A stretch of DNA of 27,747 nt from the IMG/VR virus record IMGVR_UViG_2675903278_000003; one strand, given 5' to 3'. Position 1 is the stretch's first letter, and each line of letters opens with the position of its first letter. This DNA comes from a virus (Duplodnaviria; Heunggongvirae; Uroviricota; Caudoviricetes). The notes beneath the pieces are model-generated. The model did not search any database and had not been told where the DNA came from. It saw only the letters and a program-made list of their open reading frames with translations. The translations under genes and the position numbers were made by a program. This document shows positions 1,864 through 27,747 of this stretch, piece after piece.

Positions 1864-2628
1864 TTAATCAACGATTGTGATACCGTCTTTCAATGCGTTT
1901 TGCTTACCTGCAACATCCAGTGCATCAAAAGCAGAGCGTTTCATCGTTTTCTGACCAATATCATGCTGTGTCGGACGGGAGCCGCCGCCATTGTTGCCAC
2001 TGGCTTTCAGGATGTAGTCTTTCTGAGGGTAATTTTCGACAAGGAACTCCAGCGCCTCATCAAACTGCGCCAGTTCGCCAGGCTTCGCGCGGGAATAAAT
2101 TTTGTTGCCGGAAGCGTCATAAGCAACGATCCTCCCTTCTTCCACTTTGAATGCCTGCCCGAAGCGGGCTTGTAATAAATCTGCCGGGATCGCAATTTTA
2201 TCGGCAATATATTTTGAACCCGCAAAACTACCGCCAATCATAGAATCGTAAAGCTGCTTCTCCAGCATCTGAGAGCGTTGCTTTTCTTCATCTAATTGCT
2301 GCTGAAAATTTTTCGTAATTTCTGCCTTAACCTGGTCAACCTGTCCCGCATCGAGCAGCTTTTTCTGGTCGATTTTTGACAGCATTTCCAGTGCCTCGAT
2401 CGCCTTCTTCGGGTCTTCGATAGCGGCAAACTTAGCCAGTTTTTCCTCTGCAGCTTCTTTAGCCAGGCGATGATTTTTTGCCTCGCCATTAAGCTCTGTA
2501 ATTTTTTTTGTCGCCAGCGGTGCATCGAAGCCAATTTCTTTACCATCGTCGTGCACATAAACTGGCAGGCCAGCAGTATCAATTTCTGCGTATTGTTTTC
2601 CGTTAATCTCGACCGTTTTCAGTTTCAT
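1864..2628 (-). CDS. Head scaffolding-like protein (254 aa from ATG at 2628, MKLKTVEING...)
   Basis: Highly charged, predicted coiled-coil central region (EAKNHRLAKEAAEEKLAKFAAIEDPKKAIEALEMLSKIDQKKLLDAGQVDQVKAEI...) immediately upstream of the capsid gene; position-based call. Confidence 0.5.
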   Translation of the reverse strand: MKLKTVEINGKQYAEIDTAGLPVYVHDDGKEIGFDAPLATKKITELNGEAKNHRLAKEAAEEKLAKFAAIEDPKKAIEALEMLSKIDQKKLLDAGQVDQVKAEITKNFQQQLDEEKQRSQMLEKQLYDSMIGGSFAGSKYIADKIAIPADLLQARFGQAFKVEEGRIVAYDASGNKIYSRAKPGELAQFDEALEFLVENYPQKDYILKASGNNGGGSRPTQHDIGQKTMKRSAFDALDVAGKQNALKDGITIVD

Positions 2629-2732
2629 ATTAGTACCTGGTTTAAGTCTTCCGACAGTTACGCTGCTCACCATCCGGATCGCAGCAATAAAAAAGGCCAC
2701 CCGAAGGTAGCCTGTTGTAATAAATGATTTAT

Positions 2733-3848
2733 TTAAATCCCTGCTTTTCTGAATACCTGTGCATCACGCTCACGGAGCTGCTTCAGCGTCAGCCATTCGC
2801 CTTTATCGGTGTAAAATTCATCTGGCGACATACCACCATCCCGAATCAGCTTTGCTCGGGTTTCCCCCACAATCTGTTTTTGTCTGGTGTAAGGCTGACG
2901 CAAAAACCATTCCCTGTAGGTTGTATCTCCGGCCACCACGCCATCCATGCTGGCCCGCTCAGCCGGGGAAATATCGCGAACATCAATACCCAGTTCCTTC
3001 GCTGATTTCAGAATGAACGTTTCCGTTGAGCGGCAGCAGAAATGAATTTTTCCCGGCCCCTGCAAATAAGGCACGCTGTGACCTACAGGTTTATTATTCA
3101 GCGTATATTTGAGGCGATCCCTGATTCGACATTGTGGCGTAGTACGATTATCAAGCGTTGATAACCATTGCTTACCCTTAATCAAATCATTATTCGCGCT
3201 GGCAAAACTCTCACGGGCAGTAGCAGCAAGATGTCCAACCGCTGTTTTTGCAATGCTGGCCGCATTAGCCCGGCTCATCTGCAATGCACCATCCTGAAAT
3301 CCCTTACTGACATGTCCCCGAATTTTTCTTGCGATCTGCTCATTGGTATCCCCCAGCAAAAAACCCTGACGCACTGTATTTGTTATGCGTCTGAGCCGAT
3401 CCGCCTCAAGATCTGAGGCCCACTCACTGAGCAGTCGTCCCTGGAATGGTCGCGCCATTGCAGCGGCATAAAGTGCATCAGGAGAGATACCAACCAGAGG
3501 GTGAACATCAGCAACAAAATCAGGTAGCATAGAATCAAACAGACTTAACTGATAACCAGCCTCATAAATTGCCAGCTCGTTCAGCTCTCCGGAGAGACTG
3601 GTAAACATGCTGTTAATAGCAGTGCGGTTAACCTTTCTGACGCTCGCCAGAAGTGACTCCAGGCGCTTAACGGTAAAATTACCTGGATCGAGGCTGTCCA
3701 GTGCTATCAGCAGGCGAGCAGTAAGTTCCGCATCGCTGTCATTCAGTATTTTCACCATTCTGGCAGCCACGCCAGTGCTATAGCGGGATATCCAGACTGC
3801 ATGAGCAATTGATTCATCACGCAGCCGTTCATTCACGGTTTGCATCAT
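2733..3848 (-). CDS. Phage head morphogenesis protein, Mu gpF / SPP1 gp7-like minor head protein
   Basis: 371-aa ORF containing '...LSTLDNRTTPQCRIRD...', the hallmark motif I recall for the Mu F-like head morphogenesis family; located directly after the portal gene and overlapping its stop by 20 nt. Confidence 0.75.
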   Translation of the reverse strand: MMQTVNERLRDESIAHAVWISRYSTGVAARMVKILNDSDAELTARLLIALDSLDPGNFTVKRLESLLASVRKVNRTAINSMFTSLSGELNELAIYEAGYQLSLFDSMLPDFVADVHPLVGISPDALYAAAMARPFQGRLLSEWASDLEADRLRRITNTVRQGFLLGDTNEQIARKIRGHVSKGFQDGALQMSRANAASIAKTAVGHLAATARESFASANNDLIKGKQWLSTLDNRTTPQCRIRDRLKYTLNNKPVGHSVPYLQGPGKIHFCCRSTETFILKSAKELGIDVRDISPAERASMDGVVAGDTTYREWFLRQPYTRQKQIVGETRAKLIRDGGMSPDEFYTDKGEWLTLKQLRERDAQVFRKAGI

Positions 3849-13653: not shown

Positions 13654-14240
13654 TTTTCCTCACATATGTCATATAGTAAAGGATTATATATACCGTTGTT
13701 TTGGACGCTCAAACAGCGAATCAGATCAAATAAAACGCACATTTGTTAACATTTACACAAAGTCTGCGTGGGATATTCTGAAAGAATATCCATAATGTGG
13801 AGAGAATCTATTGAAGTGCATGGTGCCGGGTGCCTCCCGGTGAACAAAATGTTCGTGATACCTGTCGGCGACAGAAAAGGTTAATGGTATCACCCCACCG
13901 CACAGGGGGATTCACCATGCAGGAGTTTTCTTAGCAAACTCACTGCGCGCCCGGCAACTCCCAACCACATAAAATGCGGAGTTTGTGGTATTTATGCATA
14001 TAACTCGCAGGAATTATCTTAAAAAACTGATGTCGATCCGGATTAAAAAGAAGCAGGTCATCATCAGATGACTGGAAAAAAGGAAAACAAAAAATACTCA
14101 TCATACAGTTTTGATTGCAGGGATGAGCCTGCTATGCACAATATGCAGAATATAAGCAAGATAAAAATATGCAGGCATATTATTTCGGATTTTGTTATTA
14201 ACACAACCTTTTTAATAATCATTTGGCATACAATAAACCA

Positions 14241-16594: not shown

Positions 16595-16750
16595 TTACTC
16601 CTCAGGTTCGTAAGCTGTGAAGACAGCGACCTCCGTCTGACCGGTTCGGATTCGCACCTCGCAGAGGTCTTTCCTCGTTACCAGTGCCGTCACTATGACG
16701 GTTAAACAGATGACAATCAGTGCGACTAACATCGCCTTTTGCTGCTTCAT
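16595..16750 (-). CDS. hok: Hok-family type I toxin (HokD/RelF-like), 51 aa
   Basis: MKQQKAMLVALIVICLTVIVTALVTRKDLCEVRIRTGQTEVAVFTAYEPEE is near-identical to my recollection of E. coli HokD/RelF; 3' hairpin 'ggcgagggatttctccctcgcc' (16564-16585) and a 9-bp-stem hairpin in the leader (about 16850-16890) fit hok mRNA architecture; the ORF-track start at 16807 is an in-frame upstream extension. Confidence 0.85.
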   Translation of the reverse strand: MKQQKAMLVALIVICLTVIVTALVTRKDLCEVRIRTGQTEVAVFTAYEPEE

Positions 16751-16961
16751 AGCCTGCTTCTCCTTGCCTTCCGGCGCGTAAGAGGCTAACCTACATGTGC
16801 AAAGCATGAAATTGGCCTCAGATTAATGTTAAGCGTCTTGCCGGACGCGTAATGTTATCTGGGGCTTTTCTCTATCTGCCTTTGGTGTTCATGCCTGAGG
16901 CAGATAGCCTCAAGCACCCGCAGCAATTCTACTTAACTCCCGTCACCTCGCCAATATAAAA

Positions 16962-23999: not shown

Positions 24000-24061
24000 G
24001 CTAGCTCTACCCTGTGCCACAAAATGTCAATTTGCATCTGAACTAATGCACTTTAATCTCG

Positions 24062-24484
24062 TCACTTCAATAAATACCGAACATCCCCCTGATAAAACGA
24101 CAATATGCGCTGCATAACTTCGCTCTTCCGGCACTCGCGACAGATTATGTTTAGGCGACTGTCGTAGCGACGTATTTCTCCGTCAGGTAATGACCAGATA
24201 AGGTCCGGATCAACCACAACCGGTTTCTTCAGCTTTGCCCTCGATAATTTTTTGCGGGCATTTTGCCAGTCTTTACGAGCCTGTTCAGACGGGAATAACC
24301 CGTAGCCAGAATTGTATACATCGCCACTGGCAACCAGCTCTCTGGCCAGAACGCTCATCAGATATCTTGTTGCCCCAGTTTTAGCTTCCAGTTGTCGTAA
24401 CGTCTCGCGCCCACTCTGGCGTACGAGTTCAAGAACCTGCCCTTTAATTTTTTCCCGCTCTTCTTGTGTAAAAACTTTTGCCAC
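24062..24484 (-). CDS. Hypothetical phage protein (140 aa, GTG start), downstream of the O-like gene
   Basis: SD 'AGGAGGG' upstream of GTG at 24484; basic protein with CxxC near the C-terminus; no Walker A motif, so not a DnaC/P-type helicase loader. Confidence 0.55.
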   Translation of the reverse strand: MAKVFTQEEREKIKGQVLELVRQSGRETLRQLEAKTGATRYLMSVLARELVASGDVYNSGYGLFPSEQARKDWQNARKKLSRAKLKKPVVVDPDLIWSLPDGEIRRYDSRLNIICRECRKSEVMQRILSFYQGDVRYLLK

Positions 24485-24524
24485 AAGCCCTCCTGAAAAT
24501 TACCTCATGACCAGAAATTAACAC

Positions 24525-25595
24525 TTACCCCCTGAAGCCCGGCGGAATTTCGTTATCCGGTTCAGAAATATGATTCACACAACGCTGGTTGTTCGTGCCG
24601 CTTACCGGGAGCAACCAGGGGTTCTCAAAATTCCGGTCCGGTCCAAAAAACGTCGTCGCTCGCTGAACAAATTCCGTTCCCGTTTTCCCGGTAGCCGCCA
24701 AGTATCTTGCGTAACGCCTCACGCCATCCAGCATGGCCTCTGGTGGCACCCCCTCGCGTAATCTGGCCTTCCAGGCACTGAAAGCGGATTTCTTCGGGTT
24801 TGCCCCAGCACGCAACGGGTACTCCCGCCAGACCTGTTCGAACACATCCGGATAATCCACTCGTCCCACAGACTGCCCGGTGTTTTCCGGGACTACCCGA
24901 TCGGCTTCCCGCTGAATGGCGGAATCGGCTTCAGGCTGCTGCAGTTGGTGTGATTGCTCCGCCCTTGCGGTCATCACCTGCTGCACAGCGCCCGAATCGG
25001 CTTTCAGCGCATACGCTGAATCGGCTTCCGGTGTCGTGCCTGCTGGCTGACCAAGATTGACGGTCTGAACATCCCCTGCCTGGTTCGTGGCGTTTTTTAC
25101 GCCATGGACCATAGTGTTTTGATCTTCTTGATCTGTATCTTTATCTGTATCTTTATCTGTCGTGACTCGTCGTGACATGTGCGTGACATTTCGTGACGCG
25201 CCGTGACAATCGCCATTTTGTTCCCGCTTTCTTTCCCTCTCTCGCTGCGCCCTCTTGCGCTCTGCAGGAGATTTTGCGGTTTGCGAAATATTGCCGTTGT
25301 CCTCTTTAAGCACCTGGCGTTTTTCCCATCCAGTGATTAAATCACCATCAAGTACCCGCCCCTGCATCGTCTGCAAAATTGAATCAATTACCTCTTCTGT
25401 CACGTCGAGCGCACTTGCCAAATCTTCTGTCGTGACATCAATGTGACCTCGCGTGACATTTCGTGACGCGCTCACCAGGAGGTGGATATACACTGCCATC
25501 ACTGTTGCAATTGGCTGTCCTGACACCCTGGCAATTGTTCGCCACTTAGGGTCATTTGGCATGTCATGCCATAATCTGAGCCAGGCGTTAGCCAT
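24525..25595 (-). CDS. Replication initiator (lambda O-like / YdaU-like replisome organiser) containing internal iterons
   Basis: 356 aa from ATG at 25595 (MANAWLRLWHDMPNDPKW...); the coding sequence contains two clusters of GTGAC-type repeats, as lambda O carries its own ori iterons; low-complexity acidic middle (DKDTDKDTDQED); located downstream of Cro-like/YdaT-like genes. Confidence 0.6.
   Translation of the reverse strand: MANAWLRLWHDMPNDPKWRTIARVSGQPIATVMAVYIHLLVSASRNVTRGHIDVTTEDLASALDVTEEVIDSILQTMQGRVLDGDLITGWEKRQVLKEDNGNISQTAKSPAERKRAQRERERKREQNGDCHGASRNVTHMSRRVTTDKDTDKDTDQEDQNTMVHGVKNATNQAGDVQTVNLGQPAGTTPEADSAYALKADSGAVQQVMTARAEQSHQLQQPEADSAIQREADRVVPENTGQSVGRVDYPDVFEQVWREYPLRAGANPKKSAFSAWKARLREGVPPEAMLDGVRRYARYLAATGKTGTEFVQRATTFFGPDRNFENPWLLPVSGTNNQRCVNHISEPDNEIPPGFRG
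25161..25210. repeat. Iteron cluster A: five copies of a 10-bp-periodic 'cGTGACa' motif, adjacent to an AT/GATC-rich stretch (about 25115-25160) with tandem 'tatctttatctg'
   Basis: 'cgtgactcgt cgtgacatgt gcgtgacatt tcgtgacgcg ccgtgacaat' read directly from the sequence; the 20-mer 'gcgtgacatttcgtgacgcg' recurs exactly at 25451-25470. Confidence 0.7.
25427..25470. repeat. Iteron cluster B: four GTGAC-type repeats including an exact 20-bp copy of part of cluster A
   Basis: 'ctgtcgtgacatcaatgtgacctcgcgtgacatttcgtgacgcg'; also within the O-like coding region (encodes SRNVT-type peptide repeats). Confidence 0.65.
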
Positions 25596-25666
25596 ACTCA
25601 CCTCTTTTGATACCGAATCTTTTTACTCACAAATTGCCGGAAGTGATCCGGTATGAATATTGCGAG

Positions 25667-26092
25667 TCAATGCACAGCCACAATATTTCCTGCAGGGCCA
25701 CCACGATTCATCTGGTTGAAACCAGCGATCGCCACTGCGACAAAATCATCAGCGTCTCTCACCAGTCGTTCCCGCGTCTCCACTAGTTCCCGAAAATAGG
25801 CTGAGCTATGGCTGCGCATTCGGGCCACCAGCAGAGGTGGCATTGCTTTTTCGATAGCTGGTAACAACGCCTGAATTTTTTCAACTGCATCAGGGGTGTC
25901 TTTCTCTACCCAGCGGAAAATTTTCTGGGTATTGCGAGCCAGGGCTTCCGGATGGCTGTCGTCATACAGTTCTGGGAACGTCATACCCAGTTCAAAATAA
26001 GCCCTGGTTATTTCAGCTGCCGGAACTTTTTCACCGTCCGGATGCGCCCAGGCATTCATCGCCATGCGGATGTGTTCATGCTTGATTTTCAT
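25667..26092 (-). CDS. YdaT-like (CII-like / DUF1019) regulatory protein
   Basis: 141-aa 'MKIKHEHIRMAMNAWAHPDGEKVPAAEITRAYFELG...'; second gene of the rightward-equivalent early operon after the Cro-like gene, as ydaS-ydaT in Rac; name from recalled similarity. Confidence 0.55.
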   Translation of the reverse strand: MKIKHEHIRMAMNAWAHPDGEKVPAAEITRAYFELGMTFPELYDDSHPEALARNTQKIFRWVEKDTPDAVEKIQALLPAIEKAMPPLLVARMRSHSSAYFRELVETRERLVRDADDFVAVAIAGFNQMNRGGPAGNIVAVH

Positions 26093-26357
26093 GAATCAAG
26101 CTCCTAGAAAGTGGTTGTGTTAACATTTTGGTATCTTCCAGCTCGGGCCAAATATTCATCCAATCAAAAGGCCTTAGTTGCTGACGTGTAACTTCACCAT
26201 TACTGGCTCGCTCAATAAGGACACATAACGATGCCCCTAACACTTGACCTTTACTCAATGCCTTTCTTAGATAACCGATGCTGGTACCACACTCGCATGC
26301 AAACATACGCTGTTCATCTGACGAAAGAGAATTGAGAAATATTCTTAATTCTTCCAT
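26076..26357 (-). CDS. Cro-like / YdaS-like HTH regulator
   Basis: 93 aa with HTH-like 'RMFACECGTSIGYLRKALSKGQ'; SD 'AAGGAG' upstream; divergently transcribed from the repressor gene across an operator-rich intergenic region. Confidence 0.65.
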   Translation of the reverse strand: MEELRIFLNSLSSDEQRMFACECGTSIGYLRKALSKGQVLGASLCVLIERASNGEVTRQQLRPFDWMNIWPELEDTKMLTQPLSRSLIHENQA

Positions 26358-26461
26358 AGCTACTCCTTAGTAAACACAGCAAAGAACACCCATAGGTAAA
26401 CAAAAGTCAATACCCACAGGTTGTTTACCTTGCAGTAATCGCATCTATTATTTACCTATGG
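26358..26461. promoter_or_regulatory. Divergent immunity-region promoter/operator segment with at least three copies of a 'CCATAGGTAAACA'-like motif in both orientations
   Basis: 'cataggtaaaca' forward at 26391-26402, 'ggttgtttacct' (reverse) at 26420-26431, 'atttacctatgg' (reverse) at 26450-26461 overlapping the repressor ATG, and a weaker 'tagtaaaca' at 26368-26376 over the Cro-like SD. Confidence 0.6.
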
Positions 26462-26877
26462 ACAAATATGAATTTAGACGACAGCAACTCATCAAAATTC
26501 GTGATGAGAAATGCGATGGTAAAGCGGTTAACGTGGCCAGAAAGATCGGGCGCGAGCCTTCTTATGTATCAAGAATGTTGTACCCAGAGGGGAAAAAGGG
26601 AAAAAAACGGATCGCTGATGATATGGTGGAGATTATCGAAGAGTCCTTTGGGTTACCCCGGGGATGGATGGATGGTATCGTTTCATCATCAACGAACACA
26701 GCCTCCAGTTATGAAACAAGGGTTCTAACGCCACGACAACGTATTTTTTTAGATCTCTTAGACGAACTGCCAGAAAGTGAAGCGGATAACTTATTAAAAA
26801 CTCTTGAAGAGAAAAAACAGTATTACAATATGATCTACGAAGAAATCCGTAAAAAGAAAGCACAAAACGCATCATAG
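26458..26877 (+). CDS. Prophage repressor (RacR/CI-functional analogue), HTH protein
   Basis: 139 aa with HTH 'KAVNVARKIGREPSYVSRML'; divergent from the Cro-like gene; no recognisable SD, and the start codon lies within an operator-like repeat (leaderless-like arrangement). Confidence 0.65.
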   Translation: MDKYEFRRQQLIKIRDEKCDGKAVNVARKIGREPSYVSRMLYPEGKKGKKRIADDMVEIIEESFGLPRGWMDGIVSSSTNTASSYETRVLTPRQRIFLDLLDELPESEADNLLKTLEEKKQYYNMIYEEIRKKKAQNAS

Positions 26878-26922
26878 CTCACCAAACAACTAGTCACCAG
26901 TTAAGACACCGCAAAAAGTTAC

Positions 26923-27087: not shown

Positions 27088-27591
27088 TTATTGATAGTGT
27101 TTTATGTTCAGATAATGCCCGATGACTTTGTCATGCAGCTCCACCGATTTTGAGAACGACAGCGACTTCCGTCCCAGCTGTGCCAGGTGCTGCCTCAGAT
27201 TCAGGTTATGCCGCTCAATTCGCTGCGTATATCGCTTGCTGATTACGTGCAGCTTTCCCTTCAGGCGGGATTCATACAGCGGCCAGCCATCCGTCATCCA
27301 TATCACCACGTCAAAGGGTGACAGCAGGCTCATAAGACGCCCCAGCGTCGCCATAGTGCGTTCACCGAATACGTGCGCAACAACCGTCTTCCGGAGACTG
27401 TCATACGCGTAAAACAGCCAGCGCTGGCGCGATTTAGCCCCGACGTATCCCCACTGTTCGTCCATTTCCGCGCAGACGATGACGTCACTGCCCGGCTGTA
27501 TGCGCGAGGTTACCGACTGCGGCCTGAGTTTTTTAAGTGACGTAAAATCGTGTTGAGGCCAACGCCCATAATGCGGGCAGTTGCCCGGCAT
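27088..27591 (-). CDS. insB: IS1 InsB reading frame (expressed as InsAB' fusion by -1 frameshift)
   Basis: 167-aa frame matching the partial copy at 2-283 apart from Q vs R at one position. Confidence 0.85.
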
Positions 27592-27747
27592 CCAACGCCA
27601 TTCATGGCCATATCAATGATTTTCTGGTGCGTACCGGGTTGAGAAGCGGTGTAAGTGAACTGCAGTTGCCATGTTTTACGGCAGTGAGAGCAGAGATAGC
27701 GCTGATGTCCGGCGGTGCTTTTGCCGTTACGCACCACCCCGTCAGTA
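27510..27747 (-). CDS. insA: IS1 InsA, N-terminally truncated by the window edge
   Basis: '...[74 protein letters not shown]' is the zinc-finger/HTH InsA protein; the frame is open to the end of the window. Confidence 0.85.
27526..27536 (-). promoter_or_regulatory. IS1 programmed -1 ribosomal frameshift site (A6C slippery motif)
   Basis: Minus-strand 'TTAAAAAACTC' at the insA/insB overlap. Confidence 0.7.

Follow-up and report, generated by a model that had tools for sequence, protein, structure and literature searches.

The DNA analysed here, hereafter the window, is a 27,747-nucleotide stretch of a Caudoviricetes genome (IMG/VR record IMGVR_UViG_2675903278_000003), which corresponds to a Rac-type Escherichia coli prophage whose integration site lies beside ttcA. 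Part of it (24000-26900) was found to be 100% identical in many complete genomes, and at least 80% of that part was present in 477 of the 5426 E. coli genomes (~9%). The gene surroundings are those of a lambdoid early region, in which a replication initiator gene follows the cro- and cII-like genes. Inside this gene lie two arrays of direct repeats (iterons), here called A and B, a single inverted copy of the same motif, and an AT-rich tract of tandem hexamers (Table 1). The prophage most likely has its replication origin here, set within the gene for the initiator in the style of lambda or SPP1.

Table 1. Features of the replication region, in positions of the window (ORF, open reading frame; strand "." for elements without a strand).
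Feature	Positions	Strand	Remarks
RacR/DicA-like repressor	26458-26877	+	
YdaS/Cro-like gene	26076-26357	-	
YdaT/CII-like gene	25667-26092	-	
Replication initiator gene	24525-25595	-	356 aa from ATG 25595 after a GAGGTG Shine-Dalgarno sequence; mechanical ORF to 25601; assigned from ORF, phrog_3729 and RefSeq name
Iteron array B	25431-25467	-	four GTCAC(G) cores, coding-strand spacing 10/10/11 bp; encodes ASRNVTRGHIDVT
Single inverted iteron copy, GTCACG	25399-25404	+	33 bp downstream of array B in the coding direction
Iteron array A	25161-25207	-	five GTCACG cores, coding-strand spacing 10/10/11/10 bp; encodes CHGASRNVTHMSRRVTT, part of the disordered linker
AT-rich tract, candidate DNA unwinding element	25115-25160	.	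tandem GATAMA hexamers and two GATC; encodes DKDTDKDTDQEDQ
Inverted repeat just past the AT tract	25081-25111	.	13-pair stem, 5-nt loop; origin membership doubtful
Initiator C-terminal tail	24528-24593	-	resembles the flexible tail of host DnaT (VNHISEPDNEIPPGFRG); NCBIfam and PDB DnaT alignments
DUF977/Ren-like gene	24062-24484	-	

Nine same-strand cores, reading CGTGAC or GTGAC on the + strand, and one inverted core were counted within 24525-25595, with the two arrays 260 bp apart. In array A, CGTGAC occurs at 25161, 25171, 25182, 25192 and 25202 (spacing 10, 11, 10 and 10), and Tandem Repeats Finder returned a 10-bp unit repeated 4.9 times at 25159-25208. Array B consists of CGTGAC at 25431, 25452 and 25462 together with a degenerate tGTGAC (GTGAC at 25443). 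Half of the CGTGAC sites of the 27.7-kb window (9 of 18) fall in 307 bp, and the total for the window was above that of all 100 shuffles. Five GTGAC cores per 50 bp were reached in none of 300 order-1 Markov simulations, the maximum being four, seen once. The exact 20-mer GCGTGACATTTCGTGACGCG is present at 25181 and 25451 and at no other place. The reading made earlier from the sequence alone (the sequence-only reading) had located both arrays and the 20-mer that they share, and all these elements were found again where it had placed them; its list of repeats was right for the nine direct cores and overlooked the inverted copy. It had also suggested that the two arrays might reflect an internal duplication. 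A recent event of this kind is not retained: the two-array layout is old and, because the double-iteron unit GTCACGnAATGTCACG recurs in both arrays family-wide, the shared 20-mer is explained without it. Since the nine cores are distributed over all three codon frames, they do not represent a peptide repeat.

Array A directly abuts the hexamer tract, in which Tandem Repeats Finder returned a 12-bp unit repeated 2.9 times at 25126-25160, with an underlying period of 6. The 12-bp tandem repeat noted earlier is thus present, but its basic unit is the hexamer GATAAA or GATACA. The description of this stretch as AT-rich holds in relative terms: no 40-mer of the gene is less stable than 25117-25156 (dG of -43.4 vs a gene mean of -57.3, standard deviation 3.7), and this segment belongs to the top 0.8% of the window. 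GATC, the other attribute given to the stretch, is found at 25121-25124 and 25130-25133. Across the family, many orthologs have no GATC beside the hexamers, those with it being mostly from Enterobacterales, and an involvement of GATC/Dam as a family feature was rejected. The lambda ori carries a palindrome at the place where the inverted repeat of Table 1 stands. Short GC-rich palindromes were seen by eye in several orthologs, and a first count gave a top-5% hairpin at this position in 18 of 36 genes; after a position-matched control (median empirical p of 0.47, with one gene of the 36 at p <= 0.1), a lambda-like palindrome was discarded as a part of the origin.

The same organization was recovered throughout the family. 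Array B, inverted copy, array A and hexamer tract follow one another in this order in 29 of 36 homologous genes, with sources in Enterobacterales, Aeromonas, Pseudomonas, Bordetella, Acidovorax, Aquitalea and others. In the 23 genes of the GTCACG type, read on the coding strand, four cores stand nearly always at gene offsets of ~128, 138, 148 and 159, an inverted copy (GTGAC) at ~192 in most, and three to six cores at ~386-417, array A being directly followed by (G)ACAGATAAAGATAAAGATAAAGA. In nearly every ortholog, no other 40-mer of the gene is richer in AT than the hexamer tract, and this holds even for genes with 32-40% AT. Pooling of 150 copies gave the core GTCACG, with G at +5 in 130 of them and a spacing of 10 bp in 82 cases and of 11 bp in 25; the site comes back with each turn of the double helix. 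The initial cores of arrays B and A lie 258-260 bp apart in most orthologs and 278, 309 or 350 bp apart in others; a helical phasing between the arrays was rejected, as these distances give no consistent phase. Among 82 close relatives (L003-L084), the number of cores ranges from 4 to 5 in array A and from 3 to 6 in array B, and the hexamer tract counts 3-6 units. Both array positions are hot spots of insertion and deletion in the protein alignment, where insertions measure 7 residues, or 21 nt, equal to two iterons (10 + 11), so that the reading frame is kept. The layout also exists in phages that have been isolated (Tritos, Aeromonas pAEv1818 and Pseudomonas phi1), and in the complete Tritos genome (46 kb) the sole iteron clusters are the two in the initiator gene. 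The sequence-only reading had held that absence of the repeats from homologous initiator genes would speak against an origin; the comparison gave the opposite result, both arrays, the inverted copy and the hexamer tract being at the same places. In the GenBank record of phi1 (L136, KT887557), the initiator gene and both arrays (~2501-3400) are unannotated and fall in a gap between coding sequences.

The motif itself is exchanged jointly in the two arrays. Genes of a GTAACG-type subfamily (L103, L105, L113 and L115) and of a CGAACG(C)-type subfamily (L110, L112 and L114) each carry their own core in both arrays, likewise followed by GATAAA or GATACA hexamers. In 29 of the 36 genes, the top 6-mer of region B is found again in region A, one to six times, and is nearly absent from the rest of the gene. 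Iteron type differs between prophages whose enterobacterial hosts are related, with GTCACG in Serratia (L087, L094) and GTAACG in Pantoea (L103) and Enterobacter (L105). When linkage was examined at the 36 loci, the N-terminal domain (N-domain) of the initiator was present at all 36, compared with 1 for DUF977, 4 for YdaT, 5 for YdaS and 5 for a C-terminal domain of the window type. Because the neighbours are not conserved with the iterons and the iteron type varies among prophages of related hosts, the N-domain is the only consistent candidate for the reader of the iterons.

Selection at the DNA level was assessed with a codon test on 20 non-redundant orthologs from gamma- and betaproteobacteria (Serratia, Rahnella, Pseudomonas, Bordetella, Aquitalea, Acidovorax, Gilvimarinus, Castellaniella, Chromobacterium and others), which were picked by peptide ([NS]VTRG) and not by DNA. 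The array B codons GCG TCA (C..), AAT GTC ACG, GGT CAC and GTC ACG were fixed in 18-20 of the 20 orthologs. Elsewhere in the N-domain, three to five synonymous codons were used for Val, Gly, Thr, Ser and Ala. This is illustrated by a majority-codon fraction of 0.91 for the 10 codons of the array B block vs 0.54 for the 45 codons outside it (Mann-Whitney p = 3e-5). Moreover, the Val codon of the inverted copy (position 58) was GTG in 17 of 17. These codon patterns indicate that the repeats act at the DNA level, beyond the constraint exerted by the protein.

The initiator, whose mechanical ORF opens at GTG 25601 (358 aa), appears to start with a putative helical DNA-binding domain, which a disordered linker joins to a small C-terminal domain, likewise helical and ending in a DnaT-like tail. 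It matches phrog_3729 of the PHROGs database, "replication initiation protein" (E = 2e-257), with remote matches to replisome-organizer and DnaD-like families (E = 6e-6 to 6e-10), and its RefSeq name is "phage replisome organizer". No Pfam family matched it at E <= 0.01 and no O family appeared even among matches at E <= 1; the label "O-like" given to the gene by the sequence-only reading was dropped, as the protein is not an O homologue. A weak, sub-threshold match to PF09681 (Phage_rep_org_N) aligned residues 7-124 to profile positions 1-118 of 121, at 12.8 bits vs a cut-off of 23.3. The family of the N-domain is large, with 2252 representatives of 50% identity clusters at E <= 1e-3 and 237 at E <= 1e-30. 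An AlphaFold2 model, built on 14 sequences and of too poor a quality for a fold search, had a mean predicted local distance difference test score (pLDDT) of 50 overall, its N-terminal helices 3-16, 18-27, 31-47, 58-65 and 69-79 scoring 75-86. According to this model, the array B peptide corresponds to the end of helix 31-47 and to the low-confidence loop 49-54 (pLDDT below 50) of the putative DNA-binding domain, the inverted copy encodes D-V-T in the turn between the putative helix-turn-helix helices 58-65 and 69-79, and residues 130-247, predicted to be disordered, form the interdomain linker. Hence, the DNA elements would be placed in tolerant segments of the protein, a surface loop for array B and the interdomain linker for array A and the hexamers. 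Columns of the alignment that separate the iteron types lie also in the basic helix after the wing, and the loop was rejected as the sole determinant of specificity.

Several variations were observed in the linker. The sequence ATCGGCTT is repeated four times in the region 24900-25031 (at 24900, 24924, 24996 and 25020, spacing 24, 72 and 24, in frame), where it encodes PEADSA-like linker peptides, and the natural variants P0002, P0004 and P0019 have linker deletions consistent with recombination between the ATCGGCTT repeats. Two relatives (L117 and L127, with genes from locus position 2501) have an extra ~120 aa between the N-domain and the linker/hexamer tract; a weak, sub-threshold match of this insert to MUG113 (GIY-YIG-like, 18.3 bits vs a cut-off of 22.3) points to a possible nuclease domain.

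The C-terminal half is modular: matches in genomes cover either residues 1-140/160 or residues 249-358, C-terminal domains vary among loci that have the N-domain and the putative origin in common, and the arrays mark the boundary where N- and C-terminal modules shuffle. The flexible tail that ends E. coli DnaT (primosomal protein I) has a nearly residue-for-residue counterpart in the final ~22 residues of the window protein. The NCBIfam DnaT model aligned residues 335-358 to its positions 156-179 of 179, the tail only (19 bits vs a cut-off of 201), and DnaT chains of the PDB aligned to the last 22-26 profile positions. The window protein lacks the N-terminal domain of DnaT and its three-helix bundle, PF17948 having no match in it. 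Instead, sister initiators with the same N-domain and origin carry PF17948, as in a relative from Escherichia albertii (L084) where they are fused to the genuine single-stranded DNA-binding domain of DnaT (64 bits). The presence of two different pieces of DnaT in alternative C-terminal modules hints at a hijacking of the restart primosome or of DnaB-DnaC delivery, and the DnaT-like tail can be regarded as a candidate motif for host recruitment. DnaT brings DnaB-DnaC to the PriA-PriB complex and goes to forks via PriA/PriB, not to specific sequences, and the partners of its tail are undefined (PMC5778457).

The loader is a further variable of the system. No P-, DnaC- or DnaB-like gene was found in the complete Tritos genome, and the window phage is likewise without one, so that neither has next to its initiator gene the phage-encoded helicase loader and helicase that characterize replisome-organizer systems. 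Tritos, Evi and vB_Eco-689R5, which are isolated lambdoid phages, carry the same replication gene as the window (94-97% DNA identity, 99-100% in the N-terminal domain). Relatives differ in this respect: in Aeromonas pAEv1818 a DnaC-like loader comes after the initiator gene, and in Pseudomonas phi1 the gene in that place bears the annotation "replication protein P".

Taken as a whole, the locus combines repeated candidate sites inside the ORF, a flank that is AT-rich and of low stability, and a position of the repeats at the junction of the N-domain with an exchangeable C-terminal domain, which are the characteristics of an origin located in an initiator gene. The candidate origin with two initiator-binding arrays, as put forward in the sequence-only reading, is supported by the layout of the orthologs, the fixed synonymous sites under array B and the joint switching of the cores, and we regard it as the probable function of the locus. 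Bound to the cores through the N-terminal helical domain, protomers of the initiator would line up along one face of the DNA helix, and the nucleoprotein complex formed at array A would strain and open the adjoining hexamer tract. The variable C-terminal module would then bring the replicative helicase. As genes like P, DnaC or DnaB are missing from the phage, it is proposed that host DnaB-DnaC is recruited by a DnaT-like route, probably through the C-terminal domain with its DnaT-like tail. The same initiator would also bind array B and the inverted copy, which would be either parts of a larger origin complex, wrapped or looped, or an auxiliary control array.

This organization is in line with systems in which iterons lie inside the gene, namely lambda O, gene 18 of P22 and gene 18 of phage L (PMC8022706). 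As in these phages, the repeats stand inside the initiator gene near the junction of an origin-specific N-terminal and an exchangeable C-terminal domain, an AT-rich region follows them in the coding direction, and the gene occupies the same slot of the lambdoid early-right operon. The present system differs in having no detectable homology to O, direct repeats of a 6-bp core every 10-11 bp in place of the four ~20-bp repeats of the lambda type, a second conserved array with an inverted copy inside the coding region of the DNA-binding domain, no P-like partner gene, and an AT tract made of a regular hexamer repeat. A second parallel is SPP1, whose gp38 (G38P) binds the direct repeats of oriL inside gene 38, beside an AT-rich unwinding element, and binds two sets of repeats (PMC6316719). 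The replisome-organizer origins of lactococcal and other Gram-positive phages belong to the same comparison, and the N-domain is remotely similar to replisome-organizer families, as indicated by the PHROGs and sub-threshold PF09681 matches above. Unlike here, where the arrays are 260 bp apart in one gene, the hosts are proteobacterial and loader and helicase genes are lacking, the two repeat sets of SPP1 are two origins ~13 kb apart and this phage encodes both a loader and a helicase (gp39 and gp40). The oriJ data of the K-12 Rac prophage were set aside as not transferable to this origin, the replication module of K-12 Rac being different. In the literature on replisome organizers and iterons, on Rac oriJ, on lambdoid replication modules and on the DnaT tail, no paper on the origin of this family was found.

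Several points weigh against an origin of this kind. Binding, unwinding and replication by any member of the family are deduced from sequence. The N-domain stays under the Pfam threshold for every DNA-binding or replisome-organizer family, and the assignment of domains and loop is approximate, the model being poor (mean pLDDT of 50). The AT tract is merely moderately AT-rich in absolute terms (75% over 40 bp), and many intergenic stretches of the window are less stable. In 7 of the 36 family members no common core was found in region B, six of these being without any recognisable core. Since the protein loop is encoded by array B, some of the co-variation between the two is automatic. Finally, the suggested recruitment of the helicase via the DnaT-like tail rests on a similarity of 22 residues.

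Among the other explanations, the one that survives best divides the function between the two arrays. Array A and the hexamer tract alone would be the origin, and array B with the inverted copy would be a control element bound by the initiator, acting through titration of the initiator, handcuffing with array A, or a roadblock that throttles transcription of its own gene. Array A alone abuts the AT-rich tract in every ortholog; array B lies ~260 bp upstream, in the coding region of a structured domain and with its own inverted copy, and some family members seem to be without array B and yet keep the hexamer tract. Iteron plasmids (P1 with incC/incA, F, R6K) have an origin array plus a control array, and in P1 the arrays flank repA, with incA as a negative control locus. 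Like the present locus, such plasmids carry the site of one initiator in two arrays that are associated with its gene, and one array stands beside the unwinding region; unlike here, their iterons measure 17-22 bp and are intergenic, and their initiators are winged-helix dimers/monomers of the RepA type. By this comparison, a control function of array B can be hypothesized. Nothing separates such a division from a single extended origin complex, however, and the near-constant spacing of 258-260 bp in most orthologs is explained equally well by the length of the domain. A divided function is a possibility of some substance, although clearly the less probable one.

A more speculative proposal, which we consider unlikely, is that array B constitutes an overlapping code, in which the sites of the initiator dictate a loop of its own DNA-binding domain and this loop helps to read the site. 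The loop would then read SRNVTRGHxDVT, SNATERGRTQNV or GNAGVTQ... according to the iteron type. If this were true, an iteron change in array B would alter the site and its reader together, providing a built-in route to new origin specificities and hence to replication incompatibility groups among prophages.

It is also conceivable that another factor (a host protein, or a YdaT/CII-like or DUF977 protein) binds the sites, which would then serve in transcription control, packaging or recombination and not in replication. The initiator is a candidate reader of the sites, and the location of the arrays at the boundary where modules shuffle makes a role in recombination possible. Against this, the neighbouring genes are not conserved with the iterons, a host protein fits poorly with iteron types that differ between prophages of related enterobacterial hosts, and iterons plus an AT tract inside an initiator gene are the classical layout of an origin; we hold this explanation to be quite improbable. 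The weakest alternative, that a conserved peptide, and linker peptides similarly rich in Val-Thr, combined with ordinary codon preference yield GTCAC as a by-product with no DNA element, can draw on the strong conservation of the peptide ASRNVTRGHxDVT and on Val-Thr being naturally GTN ACN, but it has been largely refuted by the codon test and is hardly tenable, given that the cores occupy three different frames, that codons are fixed inside the motif alone while the same residues elsewhere take three to five codons in host genes of 32% to 58% AT, and that array A keeps its core and its 10/11-bp spacing in an unconserved disordered linker.

Regarding the surroundings of the proposed origin, the initiator gene is followed by the DUF977/Ren-like gene and then by a cargo beginning with a BCCT transporter. 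This cargo of ~7 kb, directly beyond the replication module, comprises genes for a major facilitator superfamily transporter, a gamma-glutamylcyclotransferase, a LysR regulator, a DUF2254 protein and the BCCT transporter. A scan for promoters and terminators gave matches at or under the expectation from shuffles, and the replication gene had no RNA family match in Rfam. Elsewhere in the window, Rfam matches to the sok antitoxin RNA (116 bits; hokD is annotated nearby in the identical locus of a strain) and to the STnc100 small RNA (87 bits) were recorded. At the right end of the window stands an IS1 copy, by which kilR is interrupted in strain H7 at the identical locus; sok, STnc100 and IS1 are listed in this order at 16745-16919, 13764-13950 and 27088-27737.

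An origin inside an initiator gene is a known arrangement; what is new is a widespread, apparently unstudied initiator family and, within it, a conserved second array that overlaps the coding sequence of the DNA-binding domain. The module is common, being found in ~9% of complete E. coli genomes and with an N-domain represented by 2252 clusters. For Rac-type and other lambdoid prophages, and for temperate phages of Pseudomonas and Aeromonas, the analysis provides a precise map of the candidate origin, i.e., core, spacing, unwinding tract and auxiliary array. It also offers a natural example of DNA-binding sites that constrain synonymous sites, and apparently the peptide too, within a structured protein domain. 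Such a map could be used for an origin-based typing of prophage replication modules, for the prediction of replication incompatibility and for improved annotation, as for the phi1 gene. Besides, the DnaT-like modules point to a possible route by which phages without a loader may tap the primosome of their host.

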